Below, piece by piece: positions 1 to 4,796 of a stretch of 4,958 nucleotides of DNA (its first letter is position 1; the number at the start of each line of letters is the position of its first letter). The DNA comes from Escherichia coli (GTDB lineage Bacteria; Pseudomonadota; Gammaproteobacteria; Enterobacterales; Enterobacteriaceae). The notes under the pieces are model-generated. The model did no database searches and had not been told where the DNA came from. It was given only the letters and a program-made list of their open reading frames with translations. The stretch lies in assembly GCF_036507355.1 (NCBI RefSeq), contig NZ_AP027883.1, one strand, 5' to 3'. The position numbers were made by a program, and so were the translations under genes.

Positions 1-124
1 AACCAGCCTCGACACCATCAAGAGCTGGGAAACCGGACGCCGTAACCCGACCGGACTGGCGGCGAAGGTACTGGCAACCATCCAGGCGAACCCGAAATTC
101 TTCCAGGAACTGGCGGCGCACTAA
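1..124 (+). CDS. higA: 3' part of a HigA2-like XRE-family helix-turn-helix antitoxin gene (5' part is at the window end; nt 1 is the third base of a codon split across the window boundary)
   Basis: Reading from nt 2 gives TSLDTIKSWETGRRNPTGLAAKVLATIQANPKFFQELAAH followed by TAA at 122-124. The SLDTIKSWETGRRNP stretch is the second helix and turn of a classic XRE-type HTH. It continues in frame from the partial ORF at 4798-4958. Confidence 0.75.
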   Translation, partial: TSLDTIKSWETGRRNPTGLAAKVLATIQANPKFFQELAAH

Positions 125-272
125 GCCGTTGTGACAGAAGGATTCGACAGGCGAGGCCGTTCGCGTGTAATTTAACGGCAACAGAAAAAACAAAGCCCCG
201 GAAATCATGTCATATCTTGGCGGATCGCATGATAACCAGGGCCAGGTCGAAACCTTGAAAGGATATTAGCAC

Positions 273-323
273 ATGAAACGTGCCAGACAACAGCCCGCCA
301 TAAGCGCAGGGCGAATTGAATAA
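273..323 (+). promoter_or_regulatory. Candidate 16-codon leader mini-ORF (MKRARQQPAISAGRIE) whose stop overlaps the rep start; possible translational-coupling element
   Basis: ATG at 273-275 preceded by AAGGA (259-263) at 9 nt spacing; in-frame TAA at 321-323 lies 3 nt after the TTG at 316 that opens the rep frame (aTTGAATAA). Purely sequence-based, no homology support. Confidence 0.25.
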
Positions 324-1284
324 CGCAGTACTCGAACTTTTCAACGACCGCTTACCGCACAAGCCGTACTTTTCGGACGATCTGCACTTTGGTGTACGCA
401 TTGCCGGTAAGGAACGCGCCATTCTGGCGAAATACATCCAGTTCAATCAGCCTCACGCCATGTTCTGGCTGGGATTCGACGTCGATCGCGCCGGTGCCGC
501 TATTGACTGGAGCGACCGCAATGCCCCCGCGCCGACACTGACGATCACCAACCCCGAAAACGGGCACGCGCACCTGCTTTACGCGCTGAAAACCCCGATA
601 CGTACCGCGCCAGACGGAAAAATGAAGCCATTACGCTACGCAGCTGCCGTAGAGAACGCGCTACGTAAAAAATTAGAGGCTGATGCGGGGTATTCGGGAC
701 TAATCTGCAAAAATCCGAACCACGGACACTGGAAAATTGCCGTATGGCAGCCGGAACTCTACACGCTGGACTGGTTGGCTGACTTTCTTGACCTGAACGC
801 AGCGAACGAAAAAGACATCGTTGATGACTACGGCTTAGGCCGTAACTGCACCTTGTTCGACAAGACCCGTAAGTGGGCATACCGCGCTATCCGTCAGGGC
901 TGGCCGGAGTATGAGCAGTGGCTGCAAGCCTGCTATGAGCGGGCTAGTGCTTACAACCTGCAATTTGCTGTGCCTCTGGATGAAAATGAGGTGAACGGGA
1001 TTGCTAAAAGCATTGCTAATTGGACAATATGCAATATGTCAGAATTCGAATTTAGAGAATACGTAAAGAAAACTCACACTTCAAAAATACAAGCTTTGAG
1101 AGGTAAGATTGGAGGTCGCAAAAGCAAAGGTGGAGGGCGTAGGAAAAATTCTAGTTGCCCCACATCAGAACGAACTACAAAGCCATGGGTTTTACTTGGT
1201 ATTAGTCGTTCGACTTATTACAGGAAAAAATCAAATAAATTTAAGGCTGATTTAAATGTCCAACCAGAAGAGTTTGAATATTGA
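316..1284 (+). CDS. rep: ColE2-type plasmid replication initiator Rep (plasmid-specific primase), probable TTG start
   Basis: 322-aa ORF. The N-terminal two thirds (LPHKPY, QPHAMFWLGFDVDR, NPENGHAHLLYAL, YSGLICKNPNHGHW, GLGRNCTLFDKTRKWAYR) and the C-terminal KPWVLLGISRSTYYRK match my recollection of the ColE2 Rep family. There is no in-frame ATG between the upstream stop (301-303) and residue 48, so TTG 316 is the only plausible start; the Shine-Dalgarno is weak (AGGG at 308-311). Confidence 0.85.
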   Translation: MNNAVLELFNDRLPHKPYFSDDLHFGVRIAGKERAILAKYIQFNQPHAMFWLGFDVDRAGAAIDWSDRNAPAPTLTITNPENGHAHLLYALKTPIRTAPDGKMKPLRYAAAVENALRKKLEADAGYSGLICKNPNHGHWKIAVWQPELYTLDWLADFLDLNAANEKDIVDDYGLGRNCTLFDKTRKWAYRAIRQGWPEYEQWLQACYERASAYNLQFAVPLDENEVNGIAKSIANWTICNMSEFEFREYVKKTHTSKIQALRGKIGGRKSKGGGRRKNSSCPTSERTTKPWVLLGISRSTYYRKKSNKFKADLNVQPEEFEY

Positions 1285-2275
1285 GTTGCTTAGGTGTCTC
1301 GCAGTAATTTCAGTGATTTTGATACATATGACCATGGGGCATTTTTACGATGCCTTGCTCATGCATGAAAATAAATTGTCATGGATTGTTAGTAATCTTT
1401 ACTACTCGTTAACTAGGTTTTGCGTCCCTATTTTTTTTATTATATCAGCTTATTTGGTTTTTAATAATAAATCCAATAAGAAATGGCATGAAAGATTAGT
1501 AAGACTTGGCTTGCCATTCGTCGCATGGTCGGCTATTTATTATGTGTACGGAGGAGGGCGCGATGCCTCGGAATTCCTAAAAAAAATACTAACAGAAAAC
1601 ACATCATTTCATCTTTGGTTTTTTCCTCCTTTTATAGGTTACACTCTTCTTCTTCCTGCGATCAAAAGTTTATTCATCAGTGAGAATAAAGATAAATTCA
1701 AATATATTTTCGTTATCATTTTTTTATCGTCCATCTTCACCCCTTCATTAATAATGCTGCTAAATTATTTTATTGGTGGCTATTCGTTTATCTATGGGAT
1801 AAGTAATTTTTGTTTAACGCTACCACCTTTGTTAGTATATGGTTTCGCATTTTCTTATTTTTACAAAAAAGTTAACGTGGTGAGTTGGTTTGTGGGGTAC
1901 TTAGTTATAATAATACTCAATATGATGATTAATATCATTATATCTAATAAGCTTGGCACACCTAATGAATGGTTTTATGGCTATACATCAGTTCTGGTTT
2001 TTATTTCTTCTTTTGTTTTATTCAACGTAGTCATGTCAATGAATCTTTCATTTCTTCCAGAAATGGCTGGTAAGGTTGTTTTGATTGTAGGACAGTGCTC
2101 ACTTGGAATATATTTATCTCATTGGTTGGTGTTTTTAATTTTGAGTAAGCATGGTTTATTGTTTTCTGGTAGAGCCATTGTTGATCCAATACTAAATACA
2201 GTAATAGTCTTTTGTGCTTCTATCGCTTTTACATTAGTAGTTCGAATTATTAAACCATTGCGCTATATCTTGTAG
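1256..2275 (+). CDS. Integral-membrane acyltransferase family 3 protein (AT3 / OafA-Oac-like O-acetyltransferase), substrate unknown
   Basis: 339-aa ORF, very AT-rich, hydrophobic throughout (multiple predicted transmembrane segments). N-terminal LLRCLAVISVILIH fits the AT3 first-helix signature R-x2-A-x3-V-x3-H, and FFIISAYLVF resembles the second conserved AT3 motif. ATG at 1256 is preceded by AAGG (1243-1246). The start overlaps the last 29 nt of rep. Stop TAG at 2273-2275. Confidence 0.8.
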   Translation: MSNQKSLNIELLRCLAVISVILIHMTMGHFYDALLMHENKLSWIVSNLYYSLTRFCVPIFFIISAYLVFNNKSNKKWHERLVRLGLPFVAWSAIYYVYGGGRDASEFLKKILTENTSFHLWFFPPFIGYTLLLPAIKSLFISENKDKFKYIFVIIFLSSIFTPSLIMLLNYFIGGYSFIYGISNFCLTLPPLLVYGFAFSYFYKKVNVVSWFVGYLVIIILNMMINIIISNKLGTPNEWFYGYTSVLVFISSFVLFNVVMSMNLSFLPEMAGKVVLIVGQCSLGIYLSHWLVFLILSKHGLLFSGRAIVDPILNTVIVFCASIAFTLVVRIIKPLRYIL

Positions 2276-2284
2276 CTCAATGGT

Positions 2285-2323
2285 TGTGAGACCAAAAACA
2301 AGCCTATATCAGATAACAGCCCT
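2285..2323. other. Probable ColE2-type replication origin (Rep binding and primer synthesis site)
   Basis: tgaGACCAaaaacAAGCCTaTATCAGATAACAGCcc closely resembles the ColE2-P9 minimal origin as I recall it (TGAGACCAGATAAGCCTTATCAGATAACAGCGCCC). In ColE2 plasmids the origin lies just downstream of rep; here it follows the cargo gene instead. Confidence 0.5.
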
Positions 2324-2346
2324 CTTTAGCAGAGGGCTGTTTTTTT
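2317..2346 (+). terminator. Rho-independent terminator closing the rep-acyltransferase transcription unit
   Basis: Perfect 9-bp stem CAGCCCTCT (2317-2325) / AGAGGGCTG (2331-2339) with 5-nt loop TTAGC, followed by a T7 run (2340-2346). Overlaps the 3' end of the origin-like sequence. Confidence 0.6.
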
Positions 2347-2379
2347 GCAGCCAGCACAGAACCTGACATACTGCACTAC

Positions 2380-2400
2380 TCTTTAAGCCAGTACACACAG
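2380..2400 (-). other. ColE1-like oriT nick-site core (bom-type)
   Basis: The - strand reads ...GTGTGTACTGGCTTAAAGAG..., containing TACTGGCTTAA, which is identical to the nick core of the ColE1/pBR322 bom region (gtaTACTGG/CTTAActatg). It lies about 125 bp upstream of mbeC; a short inverted repeat CGTC...GACG (2401-2414) is adjacent. Confidence 0.5.
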
Positions 2401-2468
2401 CGTCCCCTCTGACGAGGTGCCACCGTGACTGGTTCAGGGGGCTCGCCGCCCCCCGAAACCCCCGGCAT

Positions 2469-2510
2469 CCACTGCGAAAAATTCTCACAGTGGTGCGAAT
2501 TTTTTCTCAG
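2469..2510 (+). promoter_or_regulatory. Putative mob operon promoter/operator with repeated TGCGAA-N3/4-TTCTCA elements
   Basis: Direct repeat TGCGAAaaaTTCTCAcag (2473-2490) and TGCGAAttttTTCTCAg (2494-2510), each containing a GAA-W-TTC near-palindrome, plus inverted repeat CCACTG (2469-2474) / CAGTGG (2488-2493). Sits immediately upstream of mbeC; a ribbon-helix-helix MobC-type protein would be a natural binder. No clear sigma70 hexamers assigned. Confidence 0.3.
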
Positions 2511-2518
2511 CGGAGCCT

Positions 2519-2845
2519 ATGGAAAAGCGAACGAAAGAGATAAAAATCCGGCTTACCGAAACCGAGCATCAGCGACTGCTTGATCGCTGCGACCGGACTC
2601 ACCTTGCGGAGTGGCTTCGTCAGCTCGGTCTGGGTGAACATACCTCCCGCAAGCGCCGTGTGCCTGAGGTGGCGCCCGAACTGCTGCGGCAGGTCAGCGG
2701 TATTGGCAATAACCTGAACCAGATTGCCCGCCGCCTGAACCAGGCTGATTCCCTGACGCCTTCTGAACGTGTCTCGCTGCTCGTCGTACTGACCAGCCTT
2801 GATCGGCAGCTTGGCGACCTGCTGGAGCAGAACCGTGATCGTTAA
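2519..2845 (+). CDS. mbeC: Mobilisation accessory protein MbeC/MobC (relaxosome DNA-binding protein)
   Basis: 108-aa ORF. TETEHQRLLDRCD, the LLRQVSGIGNNLNQIARRLN block and the overall length fit the ColE1 MbeC / MobC family as I recall it. GGAG at 2512-2515. Stop TAA (2843-2845) overlaps the relaxase GTG start. Confidence 0.8.
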   Translation: MEKRTKEIKIRLTETEHQRLLDRCDRTHLAEWLRQLGLGEHTSRKRRVPEVAPELLRQVSGIGNNLNQIARRLNQADSLTPSERVSLLVVLTSLDRQLGDLLEQNRDR

Positions 2846-4403
2846 AATTCACTCACGAGGTGCGGGTTCCGGCAGCGGGCCGGTAGATTACCTGTTGGGT
2901 AAAGACCGGCAGCGTGAACAGGCCTGCGTACTGCGTGGCAATCCTGAACATGTGCGTGAGCTGATCGACGGCTGCAACTTTGCCCGCGCCTACACTTCCG
3001 GCGTGCTTTCATTCCAGGAACCTGACATTGCAGACGCCGAGAAATCGCGCCTGATGGACGAATGGGAGCACACGCTGCTGACCGGACTCGACCGCGACCA
3101 GTACGCCTGCCTGTGGGTAGAGCATCGCGACAAGGGACGGCTTGAGCTGAATTTTGTCATCCCGAACATCGAATTGCAGAGTGGAAAACGCCTGCAACCC
3201 TACTTTGACCGCGCCGACCGTCCCCGCGTCAACGCCTGGCAGACCCTGACCAACGACCGGCTGGGGCTGCGCGACCCGAATGACCCGACCTACCGCCGTC
3301 CGCTGACGCAGGCCAGCGATCTGCCCCGCGACAAACAGCAGGCGGCAGAGAAAATCACCGCCGGCCTGATGAACCTGATGCAGCAGGGCGTGATCCGCAG
3401 CCGGCAGGACGTGGTGACGCAGCTGGAAAGCTACGGCCTGACCGTAGCGCGGGAAACGAAAAGCAGCATCAGCATTGCCGATCCGGACGGCGGCCGAAAT
3501 ATCCGGCTGAAAGGAATGATTTATGAGCGAGATTTTAAATTTGGCGAAGGGCTTCGAGGAGAAATCGAAGCAGCAGGCGCAGGATACCGAGCAGAGCGTG
3601 AAGCGCGAGTTCGCGAGGCTGGAGACGTCTATCAGCGCGGAACTGCAATCAAGCTCGCAGAGCATCAGCAACGCTATCCGCGAGCAGAACGGCAGGCTGA
3701 CGGGCATGATCAGAACCTCCGTTTCAGCGGCGATGGCGTGGGTATTCCTCTGCTTCGCCCTGCTGATCGGCATCATGGGGGGGATAATCTGGTTTCAGGG
3801 CACGATCATCACCTCGCGCCTGAGCGAAATGGACAGCTACAGCCAGCAGCTGGCGAACCTGAAAGCGAAAAGCGGCGCGGGCGTGGCGATCTACAGCGAC
3901 GACAAGCACCGGAACACCTACATGGTGGTGCTGCCGAAGCAGGCGCACGGCGTGGAAACCTATACATCGACGACCGACAACACCGTAGTGAAATACACGG
4001 CGAAATAACCCCGTCAGAGCGCCCTGAAACGACACAGCGCGTTTTTAACACCGAGGATGACCAAAACCATGACCGAGATGGAAAAACAGCTTCTGAGCGC
4101 CTTAGAGAGCTTACAGACAAGCTACGAGCAACAGCAGCAGGCGTGGCAGGACAGCTACAGCAGCTTGCAGCACATGTTCGAGGCTACCTCACAGGCGCTG
4201 ACGCACAGCGACCGGGTGTGTCAGCACTTGAGCAGTCAGGTAGAGAGCTTGCGCGCGCAGGTCGAGAGCTTGAGCAGGAACGTCAGCCGCTTGATGCGTT
4301 GATCAGGCAGCACGACCGCGCCTACGCCGAGAAGCTGCGTGAGCAGCAGCCAGAGCCGGAGCCGCAGAAAAAAACGACCCGCTACTATGGCCCCTCGATG
4401 TGA
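2835..4403 (+). CDS. mbeA: MOB-HEN (ColE1 MbeA-type) conjugative relaxase; start placed at GTG 2835 rather than the ATG at 2799 in the ORF track
   Basis: From GTG 2835 the protein starts MIVKIHSRGAGSGSGPVDYLL, putting the catalytic Tyr at residue 19 and the HEN motif at H97/E104/N106 (LWVEHRDKGRLELNFVIPN), the same numbering as ColE1 MbeA. GTG 2835 is in frame with ATG 2799 and overlaps the mbeC stop (GTGATCGTTAA). 522 aa; the C-terminal half is low-complexity and charged. Confidence 0.85.
   Translation: MIVKIHSRGAGSGSGPVDYLLGKDRQREQACVLRGNPEHVRELIDGCNFARAYTSGVLSFQEPDIADAEKSRLMDEWEHTLLTGLDRDQYACLWVEHRDKGRLELNFVIPNIELQSGKRLQPYFDRADRPRVNAWQTLTNDRLGLRDPNDPTYRRPLTQASDLPRDKQQAAEKITAGLMNLMQQGVIRSRQDVVTQLESYGLTVARETKSSISIADPDGGRNIRLKGMIYERDFKFGEGLRGEIEAAGAGYRAEREARVREAGDVYQRGTAIKLAEHQQRYPRAERQADGHDQNLRFSGDGVGIPLLRPADRHHGGDNLVSGHDHHLAPERNGQLQPAAGEPESEKRRGRGDLQRRQAPEHLHGGAAEAGARRGNLYIDDRQHRSEIHGEITPSERPETTQRVFNTEDDQNHDRDGKTASERLRELTDKLRATAAGVAGQLQQLAAHVRGYLTGADAQRPGVSALEQSGRELARAGRELEQERQPLDALIRQHDRAYAEKLREQQPEPEPQKKTTRYYGPSM
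3523..4008 (+). CDS. mbeB: MbeB-like mobilisation protein, nested in the +1 frame inside mbeA
   Basis: 161-aa ORF with AAGGA (3511-3515) 7 nt before the ATG; a charged N-terminal region followed by one hydrophobic segment (AAMAWVFLCFALLIGIMGGIIWF). Position and architecture match ColE1 mbeB; call is positional/architectural rather than from verified sequence identity. Confidence 0.6.
   Translation: MSEILNLAKGFEEKSKQQAQDTEQSVKREFARLETSISAELQSSSQSISNAIREQNGRLTGMIRTSVSAAMAWVFLCFALLIGIMGGIIWFQGTIITSRLSEMDSYSQQLANLKAKSGAGVAIYSDDKHRNTYMVVLPKQAHGVETYTSTTDNTVVKYTAK
4069..4302 (+). CDS. mbeD: MbeD-like mobilisation protein, nested in the +1 frame inside the 3' part of mbeA
   Basis: ORF track starts at ATG 4057 (no spacing after GAGG). 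The in-frame ATG 4069 (MTEMEKQLLSALESLQ...) has GAGGA 11 nt upstream and better fits the ColE1 MbeD start as I recall it. Coiled-coil-like repeats (QVESLRAQVESLSRNV). Same frame as mbeB. Confidence 0.55.
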   Translation: MTEMEKQLLSALESLQTSYEQQQQAWQDSYSSLQHMFEATSQALTHSDRVCQHLSSQVESLRAQVESLSRNVSRLMR

Positions 4404-4463: not shown

Positions 4464-4796
4464 GTGAGTCACGCGATTGAGTTTATCGAGACCCCGATGT
4501 TTACCCGTCAGATAAAACAGATCGCCACGGATGAAGAACTCAGGGAGCTGCAAAAGACGCTGATTGAGTCGCCGGACAAAGGCGATCTCATTCAGAAAAC
4601 CGGCGGGCTGCGCAAAATCAGGATGGCGACGGGCAACCAGGGAAAAAGCGGCAGCGTGAGGGTGATTTACTTTCTGGCCACCGCCGAGGTGATCTATCTG
4701 GTGATGGCCTACCCGAAAAGCACCAAAGACAGCCTGACGGACGCGGAAAAAGCCGCGCTGAAGACGCTGACCCAACAACTGAAAGACGAGGTGTGA
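4464..4796 (+). CDS. higB: HigB2-like (RelE/ParE superfamily) type II toxin, GTG start
   Basis: 110-aa ORF. TGGLRKIRMATGNQGKSGSVRVIYF and the downstream AEVIYLVMAYPKSTKDSLTD match the HigB-2 toxin family (GTGGLRKIR...GKRGGSRIIYYF...YLL..Y.K pattern) as recalled from Vibrio HigB-2. Toxin-first gene order is typical of hig modules. Stop TGA 4794-4796, 1 nt before the antitoxin ATG. Confidence 0.8.
   Translation: MSHAIEFIETPMFTRQIKQIATDEELRELQKTLIESPDKGDLIQKTGGLRKIRMATGNQGKSGSVRVIYFLATAEVIYLVMAYPKSTKDSLTDAEKAALKTLTQQLKDEV

Follow-up and report, generated by a model that had tools for sequence, protein, structure and literature searches.

Why the base composition of a small plasmid drops abruptly in the middle of its replication gene and recovers only at its replication origin is the question raised by contig NZ_AP027883.1 of Escherichia coli (RefSeq assembly GCF_036507355.1). 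The window, i.e., the whole stretch of 4,958 bp analysed here, is an entire circular plasmid: its ends meet in frame within the nadS/higA antitoxin gene, and relatives show no interruption at this point. It is a complete ColE2-type, MOBP-mobilizable plasmid of PLSDB type Col(Ye4449) and encodes the ColE2-type initiator-primase Rep (rep, 316..1284, plus strand, 322 amino acids, TTG start). The C-terminal DNA-binding part of Rep (DBD), a cargo gene for a membrane O-acetyltransferase and the left arm and spacer of the origin very probably form one AT-rich cassette, which is exchanged as a unit among otherwise near-identical plasmids. Such an exchange explains the abrupt change in base composition. 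On its left, the cassette would be flanked by the conserved primase/PriCT region of rep and on its right by the conserved origin core, a hairpin and the mobilization backbone, and the cargo slot of this enterobacterial lineage lies between the two halves of a replication-specificity pair. This reading draws on breaks in composition and homology, on covariation, on linkage and on recombination footprints, all of them found computationally.

Composition and homology boundaries inside rep and the origin

In sliding-window analysis, the GC content falls from 0.50-0.62 to 0.28-0.39 between approximately positions 950 and 2300 and is back at 0.50-0.60 by 2350. A two-breakpoint maximum-likelihood fit on the circular sequence places the AT-rich block at 980..2316, with a GC content of 0.334 compared to 0.571 outside (log-likelihood ratio 110.8) and two-log-likelihood-unit support of 944-1017 for the left and 2301-2387 for the right break. 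A first-pass annotation of the plasmid had proposed a GC drop at 980-2345; the fitted segment, with its sharp break inside rep, matches this almost exactly. Its further remarks hold as well, as the AT run quoted there as unique in the window is found once, at 1432-1474, and the Rep C-terminal sequence is recognisable in the AT-rich part as KPWVLLGISRSTYYRK (residues 289-304, nt 1180-1227). The longest run consisting only of A and T measures 17 nt within the block and 11 nt elsewhere in the window. GC content at third codon positions (GC3) amounts to 0.64 for rep 316-975, 0.26 for rep 1024-1281 and 0.33 for the acyltransferase gene, with 0.59-0.84 for the backbone genes. This drop within rep identifies a shift at the nucleotide level and not an effect of amino-acid content. 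A 13-nt inverted repeat (92% complementary) at 1030-1042/2363-2375 brackets the block; its left arm is unique to the window cassette, and the repeat is probably due to chance.

Rep combines a Replicase domain (PF03090, residues 28-156, E = 3e-46; an AEP domain) with a PriCT_1 domain (PF08708, residues 175-237, E = 1e-8), and its residues 176-305 align to the DNA-binding domain of ColE2-P9 Rep (PDB 3VW4, E = 6e-29), including the KPW..LGISR.TYYRK motif. Neither Rep nor the acyltransferase matched a named NCBIfam family. The backbone part of rep, encoding primase and PriCT_1 (316..1026, plus strand), is GC-rich (GC 0.54-0.55, GC3 0.64) and conserved, while the DBD (residues 238-322, 1027..1284, plus strand), the first part of the cassette, is hypervariable and AT-rich (GC 0.36, GC3 0.26). 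The second part is the gene of a 339-amino-acid Acyl_transf_3 membrane O-acetyltransferase (1256..2275, plus strand), which overlaps the 3' end of rep by 29 nt.

For comparison, a scan of one genome per species yielded numerous distant relatives and 19 close ones, in which the Rep N-terminus is 82-96% identical; with PLSDB records added, the close set comprises 31 members. The best relatives, L001-L003, are 93-98% identical to the window over 2286 (2303)..4958 and 1..1025 and unrelated in between according to blastn. Homology to relatives thus stops at 1025, corresponding to Rep residue ~236, where the PriCT_1 domain ends. For residues 1-236, dozens of plasmids show 82-96% identity, whereas the DBD reaches only 59-62% protein identity with its best PLSDB relative and, in a set of 5.8 billion proteins, matches only fragments of the same plasmid type. 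Separate searches with the two halves of Rep consequently return different nearest relatives. Neither of the outcomes named in the first-pass annotation as refuting it, i.e., no GC break inside rep or shared nearest relatives, was thus observed. Over the 19 relatives, mean pairwise DNA identity is ~0.85 up to position 945, 0.70-0.73 at 946-1035, 0.25-0.57 at 1036-1245 (family identity over 1027-1284 being 0.08-0.57) and ~0.28, the chance level, through the cargo; it then amounts to 0.34 before 2288, 0.64 at 2288-2307 and 0.88 at 2308-2327. This profile shows that the hypervariable block equals the AT-rich block in extent. At four-fold sites, comparison of different cassettes gives an identity of 0.337 for the DBD (0.324 by chance) and of 0.58 for the N-terminal part of rep (rep-N; 0.26 by chance), i.e., synonymous sites are saturated in the DBD and unsaturated in the N-terminus.

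The right homology break is located inside the ColE2-type origin (2288-2320, plus strand), which is composed of arm, spacer and core: the core CCTATATCAGATAACAGCCCTCT and the adjoining hairpin are shared, while the left arm is different in each relative. Left arm GAGAC (2288-2292) and the 15-nt spacer CAAAAACAAGCCTAT (2293-2307) make up the variable part of the origin and the third part of the cassette (2288..2307, plus strand). The core ATCAGATAACAGC (2308..2320, plus strand) is conserved backbone, contains the AGA primer site of ColE2-type origins and is identical to the ColE2-P9-type core in L073, a plasmid whose Rep DBD is identical to the ColE2-P9 crystal construct. A hairpin of 11 pairs with a T-run (2315..2346, plus strand) overlaps the right end of the origin, its terminator-like site at 2315-2341 being followed by TTTTT, and an equivalent is present in relatives and in the ColE2-P9 type; judged by its structure, it is likely the terminator of the rep-cargo transcript. 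With core and hairpin being conserved backbone, a foreign descent of the entire origin is ruled out.

The ColE2-type minimal origin comprises 32 bp and is used with an AGA primer (PMC6856555, PMC5304414). When the window origin (TGAGACC..AAGCCTATATCAGATAACAGCC) is set against that of the ColE2-P9 type (TGAGACCAGATAAGCCTTATCAGATAACAGCG), the conserved core with its AGA site is present. The core is located 1,023 bp past the rep stop codon with the 339-amino-acid gene in between, and not immediately downstream of rep. L073 has its origin, TGAGACCAGATAAGCCTTATCAGATAACAGC, directly at the rep stop codon and no GC drop within rep (GC3 of 0.61 for the N-terminal and 0.59 for the C-terminal part); likewise, in distant ColE2-type plasmids of Psychrobacter, Acinetobacter and Pseudomonas, the origin follows rep after 5-27 bp, with no GC drop. 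Hence, the cargo slot is derived, having split a module in which DBD and origin were once contiguous. The arrangement is the same in all 31 close relatives: the GC content is 0.48-0.57 in rep-N and 0.31-0.41 in the C-terminal part of rep, and rep and origin are separated by cargo of 551-2549 bp (GC 0.32-0.41), which is unrelated from one relative to the other. As the AT-rich Rep C-terminus occurs in all of them, it marks a cassette slot common to the whole family instead of a single import event in this plasmid.

An orphan ColE2-type origin (GTGAGACAAAAACAAGCCTATATCAGATAACAGCC) with hairpin and backbone flank was also noticed at ~936-1000 on the minus strand of NZ_CP104531.1 (L077), a ColE1/Rop-type E. 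coli plasmid without ColE2 rep. Its neighbours are genes for a helix-turn-helix regulator and for a methyltransferase with a ScaI-family restriction enzyme, and it has the appearance of a leftover cassette fragment taken up by a replicon of a different type.

Pairing of the Rep C-terminus with the origin arm

Within the DBD, a linker of 27 amino acids (residues 264-290, nt 1105-1185, plus strand) is followed by the recognition module W291..GISRST..YYRK (nt 1186-1227, plus strand). Among C-termini of the W..GIS type, the motif SR(A/S) is paired with the arm GAGAC in 18 of 19 cases, SRR with GCAC in all nine and S(E/Q)S with GACAG in all three. Both main motif types occur in close and in distant clades, so that the pairing cuts across the N-terminal phylogeny. 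In L004 and L080, whose Rep N-termini are 92-95% identical, a helix-turn-helix-type C-terminus replaces the W..GISR..YYR module, which indicates that the class of DNA-binding fold was swapped on the same backbone; these C-termini pair with the arms GCGTTCA and GTGTTCA, unrelated to GAGAC or GCAC.

Lengths co-vary as well. If the linker is counted as the residues from the RG motif to the conserved W and the spacer as the bases from the pentamer to the ATCAG core, their Spearman correlation is 0.86 over 29 unique pairs, 0.915 in the close clade (n = 27, p = 2e-11) and 0.77, at ~2 amino acids per nucleotide, over 16 distinct classes, all values being uncorrected for ancestry. These classes span 14-31 amino acids and 9-16 nt. 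The window combines 27 amino acids with 15 nt, its nearest backbone relatives 18 with 13, 24 with 14 and 17 with 12, and ColE2-P9 21 with 12. L074 has an arm identical to that of the window and the same 27-amino-acid linker, while L075 combines 24 amino acids with 14 nt. As a test of prediction, PLSDB was searched by tblastn with the DBD alone and, independently of rep, with the origin alone, and both searches converge on the same plasmids. The premise of the first-pass annotation that Rep C-terminus and origin form a cognate pair is thereby borne out for the variable part of the origin.

We infer the following protein-DNA contacts. The W..GIS-R-x-T..YYR module would read the arm pentamer, with x being A or S in combination with GAGAC and R in combination with GCAC. 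The conserved PriCT/RG region would sit on the invariant core, the site of AGA primer synthesis, and the linker (27 amino acids here) would span the spacer (15 nt here) as a ruler.

Block transfer and its alternatives

Direct traces of exchange are found when DBD, cargo and rep-N are compared pairwise. DBD DNA identity is bimodal over 465 pairs: three pairs reach at least 0.99, and all of these share cargo (97.6-100%) and arm, while the remaining pairs do not exceed 0.69 and none of them shares cargo. Over the same 465 pairs, rep-N and DBD identities are uncorrelated (rho 0.016). L001 and L078 carry cassettes that are 99.5-99.8% identical next to rep-N sequences of only 93.2% identity. Between the window and L069, 36 of 40 differences (of 40-41 when L087 is included) are located in 314-744 and only four in 745-2325 (99.7% identical; Fisher p = 1e-20), and L087, which originates from another sample, displays the same pattern extending to 2501, rep 316-744 being 92-94% identical in L069 and L087. 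The stretch co-inherited in the latest exchange hence covers 745..2501. The closest matches to window rep 316-744 (96-97%) are in plasmids with other cassettes, whereas the GC-normal segment 745-1023 is 100% identical in L069 and L087 and does not exceed 90% identity with any other relative. These affinities place the latest crossover near 745, upstream of the GC break. The sequence beside the cassette (745-1023) appears to hitch-hike with it.

At least two different rep-N alleles carry the window cassette. L070, a 5,795-bp contig of JGI 3300045669, contains a third copy, which is more diverged (96-99% identical) and in which an insertion sequence (DDE_Tnp_1) interrupts the acyltransferase gene, the Rep linker is frameshifted and the origin spacer lacks one nucleotide (AAGCC to AACC); this is either a decaying copy or an assembly error. 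No copy of this Rep-origin block without cargo was encountered, all occurrences (L069, L070, L087) carrying the acyltransferase gene or a remnant. Among 5,426 complete E. coli genomes, none contains a DNA-level relative of 1030-2285, plasmid relatives of the block do not go beyond ~70% identity over rep, and an exact word search with the DBD returned one metagenome contig (L087, with the same cassette) and no viral contig.

The first-pass annotation had explained the block by one event that imported a foreign Rep-specificity domain, the origin and the acyltransferase gene. Transfer as a block stands, given 99.7% identity over 745-2325 next to 92-94% over rep 316-744. As regards the origin, only left arm and spacer (2288-2307) are exchangeable, while core ATCAGATAACAGC and hairpin belong to the backbone. 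A one-off import into this plasmid is contradicted by the AT-rich C-termini of all 31 close relatives, no AT-rich donor replicon was found outside the family, and the latest crossover is located near 745 and not at the GC break. As members share no homology inside their cassettes, homologous crossovers would be confined to the conserved flanks, i.e., the 5' two-thirds of rep and the origin core with the backbone. With crossovers confined in this way, matched DBD, cargo and arm would move together and the recombinant would still be able to replicate.

Several observations weigh against exchange of the cassette as a unit, or limit how far it can be generalized. With 31 close relatives, the sample covers only a small part of the more than 1,200 PLSDB records. 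Two linker-spacer classes with TCGAA-containing spacers, those of L085 (17 amino acids/10 nt) and L038 (21 amino acids/11 nt), fall below the trend of the ruler, which suggests a different binding geometry. The covariation statistics leave shared ancestry uncorrected, and, given the physical linkage of DBD and arm, common inheritance as opposed to functional constraint could account for part of the correlation. In three pairs (window/L074, L002/L075 and L008/L013), the same specificity class is combined with different cargo at a DBD DNA identity of only 50-62%; hence, cargo turnover within a class, or convergence of classes, has also occurred. Furthermore, no AT-rich donor replicon was found outside the family, the nearest DBD relatives residing on the same GC-rich backbone, and the 'foreign' status of the block is therefore based on composition and synonymous saturation only. 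Finally, the acyltransferase matches neither PADLOC, i.e., it is not a catalogued defence protein, nor NCBIfam.

Some of these points would equally be expected if Rep C-terminus and arm had diverged in place, evolving fast to escape incompatibility, with cargo being replaced independently and without block transfer. The family-wide AT-rich C-termini, the same-class pairs with different cargo and the lack of an external donor all fit such a scenario. Positive selection, however, cannot saturate the four-fold sites of the DBD, and their saturation next to unsaturated N-termini excludes simple divergence in place. The bimodal DBD identities, perfectly linked to cargo and without intermediates, the near-identical cassettes (99.5-99.8%) on rep-N alleles of only 92-94% identity and the independence of rep-N and DBD identities likewise speak for exchange, and divergence in place is consequently regarded as unlikely. 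A transposon, a passenger borne by an insertion sequence or an integron-like cassette might instead have placed the acyltransferase gene between rep and origin, leaving the Rep C-terminus unmoved. While the wholly different cargo of the relatives and the insertion sequence in L070 could be taken as hints in this direction, the latter lies within the cargo gene and does not flank it, the boundaries of homology and GC content are located inside rep, ~230-300 bp upstream of the cargo, and the DBD is perfectly linked to the cargo. Neither terminal inverted or direct repeats nor attC-like sites, a transposase or an integrase bracket the block, on which ground transposon or integron insertion was ruled out; overall, we consider this explanation highly improbable.

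Even less credit is given to an account without horizontal history, in which low GC merely mirrors what is encoded: a basic K/S-rich domain, a hydrophobic membrane protein and an AT-rich origin. The Rep C-terminus is indeed rich in K, R and S and the acyltransferase in F, I and L, and origins are often AT-rich. Yet, GC3 itself falls from 0.64 to 0.26-0.33, the same domain is encoded without GC drop in the ColE2-P9 type and in distant homologues (GC3 0.59 vs 0.61), the very different types of cargo protein in the 31 relatives are all encoded at GC 0.32-0.41, and the breaks in composition and homology coincide. Amino-acid composition as the cause of low GC is ruled out by GC3 together with the ColE2-P9-type comparison.

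Cargo, backbone and comparison with known systems

The cargo of the relatives consists mostly of anti-phage genes according to Pfam, PADLOC and record annotations. It comprises AIPR, Old/AriA/GajA-like and ATPase-Toprim proteins, NsnA/GmrSD with HEPN, ApeA-like proteins, type IIG restriction-modification, a DNA methyltransferase, LeoA-like GTPases, dCTP deaminase, TIR with DUF4231, DUF262 and a DEAD-box helicase; PADLOC matches were obtained for Old/AriA/GajA, NsnA, ATPase-Toprim, LeoA and PDC-S58. A few envelope enzymes also occur (glycosyltransferase, AsnB-like, transglycosylase). Of 18 relatives examined, 11 have cargo oriented like rep, in many cases with an overlap at the rep stop, and seven have it in the opposite orientation.

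In the window, the acyltransferase covers positions 3-324 of the 326 profile positions of PF01757 (E = 7e-29), i.e., a full-length AT3 domain, and also matches the phage family PHROG 3333 'O-acetyltransferase' (E = 5e-13). Identical copies of the protein were found in 26 run assemblies, beyond which identity does not exceed 56% (41-56% for the nearest non-plasmid homologues). Homologues of 52-55% identity adjoin gtrA/gtrB/gtrC-like or Glucos_trans_II genes (Glucos_trans_II/GtrC-like in L071 and L072), and on an Erwinia chromosome, a homologue directly follows gtrA-gtrB-gtrC-like genes next to the his operon; such neighbours are confined to the homologues, the plasmid copy having none. From domain content and these neighbourhoods, the enzyme may well O-acetylate O-antigen or another surface glycan, and such acetylation could lead to serotype conversion and masking of phage receptors. 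The gene overlaps rep by 29 nt, is preceded by an AAGG Shine-Dalgarno-like motif and is followed, after the origin, by the likely terminator, which together suggest co-expression with rep, probably by read-through or translational coupling, with transcription ending at the hairpin after the origin. A 13-nt hairpin (2253-2265/2273-2285) spanning the acyltransferase stop codon just before the origin is probably due to chance.

The remaining plasmid is backbone common to more than 1,200 PLSDB plasmids, mainly from Escherichia, Klebsiella and Salmonella, which are MOBP-mobilizable and in part typed Col(Ye4449); none of them covers more than ~76% of the window. Its ColE1-like mobilization region (2519..4403, plus strand; Pfam NikA-like/MobC, Relaxase, MbeB_N and MbeD_MobD) is 96-98% identical to relatives and contains mobC/mbeC (2519-2845), a relaxase gene starting near 2835, mbeB (3523-4008) and mbeD (4057-4302). 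It is followed on the same strand by the higB/relE toxin gene (4464-4796; Pfam RelE) and the nadS/higA antitoxin gene, which runs from 4798 across the circular junction to 123. The rep leader with the copy-control region (194..305, plus strand) is likewise backbone outside the cassette; it yields a sub-threshold Rfam match to PK-repBA (39.8 bits versus a gathering score of 45, E = 2e-6), and the opposite strand (187-270) a weak match to a CopA-like antisense RNA (E = 0.45). As the PK-repBA pseudoknot is of the IncB/IncI type, the copy-control module may differ in type from the classic ColE2 RNAI. Several copies of the backbone are found in the PLSDB records NZ_CP138436.1 (21 kb, four matching places) and NZ_CP090473.1 (11.3 kb, two places), possibly multimers or cointegrates of family members, which would be substrates for cassette exchange.

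If exchange of the cassette as a unit is correct, it would explain how accessory, largely anti-phage genes turn over in very small plasmids without integrase or transposase, why replicon typing and Rep phylogeny are inconsistent along the gene in abundant plasmids of Klebsiella, E. coli and Salmonella, and by which route new origin specificities spread. In the passage of PMC5304414 that cites Tajima 1988 and Hiraga 1994, the ColE2 origin is described as an incompatibility determinant; a cassette swap should therefore also change origin-based incompatibility. The code of motif and pentamer and the linker-spacer ruler make Rep-origin recognition testable by chimeras and could supply orthogonal origins for engineering, while the putative O-antigen acetyltransferase, being encoded on a plasmid, could change serotype and susceptibility to phages. 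More tentatively, the family might represent a shared mobilizable backbone that accepts a combinatorial library of cassettes, mostly with anti-phage or surface-modifying functions, each with an orthogonal Rep-origin pair written in a simple code of one residue for the pentamer and linker length for the spacer. A change of cargo would then automatically be a change of incompatibility type, several members with different defences may coexist in one cell, and the code would lend itself to the design of orthogonal replicons; we regard this as possible but rather doubtful.

Specificity pairs of Rep and origin as well as mosaic ColE2 replicons have been established since the 1990s. Shinohara and Itoh are said to have reported in 1996 that the C-terminal regions of Rep together with a one-nucleotide difference in origin length set E2/E3 specificity. 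The range of the ruler found here extends, with its 16 classes, far beyond one E2/E3 pair. ColE2-P9 and ColE3-CA38 (class C theta) share the Rep architecture of the window (Replicase, PriCT_1 and a C-terminal part aligning to PDB 3VW4), ColE2-P9 has the same origin core ATCAGATAACAGC followed by a hairpin, and it fits both code and ruler with its 21-amino-acid linker, 12-nt spacer and SRA paired with GAGAC. In ColE2-P9, however, the origin is located at the rep stop and the composition of the C-terminal part is normal, while in the window the two determinants lie 1 kb apart, with cargo in between, and the C-terminal part is both AT-rich and saturated at synonymous sites between family members. 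Mosaic ColE2-related replicons (Hiraga, Sugiyama & Itoh 1994) and the Pseudomonas REx-C/REx-R replicons (PMC5304414) likewise consist of segments of different histories exchanged by recombination. In REx-C/REx-R-type modules, the partners are the control region and the rep gene (PMC5304414), whereas here the junction is located inside rep, at the boundary between PriCT and DNA-binding part, and what is exchanged includes, in addition, an accessory gene and one half of the origin. No description of cargo between two specificity determinants, or of family-wide cassette-wise exchange, was found in the openly searchable literature, subscription literature being outside the search.

Oac/OafA-like AT3 O-acetyltransferases of seroconverting phages and gtr clusters likewise possess a single full-length Acyl_transf_3 domain of ~340 amino acids; unlike these, the acyltransferase described here is encoded on a 5-kb plasmid inside the replicon, at the low identity to non-plasmid homologues given above. 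Anti-phage defence hotspots, finally, resemble the present family in offering a fixed slot with conserved flanks to unrelated, AT-rich and mostly defence-related genes. In contrast to such hotspots, the flanks of the slot are here the halves of an essential protein-DNA recognition pair and vary together with the cargo, and the cargo of the window is uncatalogued as defence.

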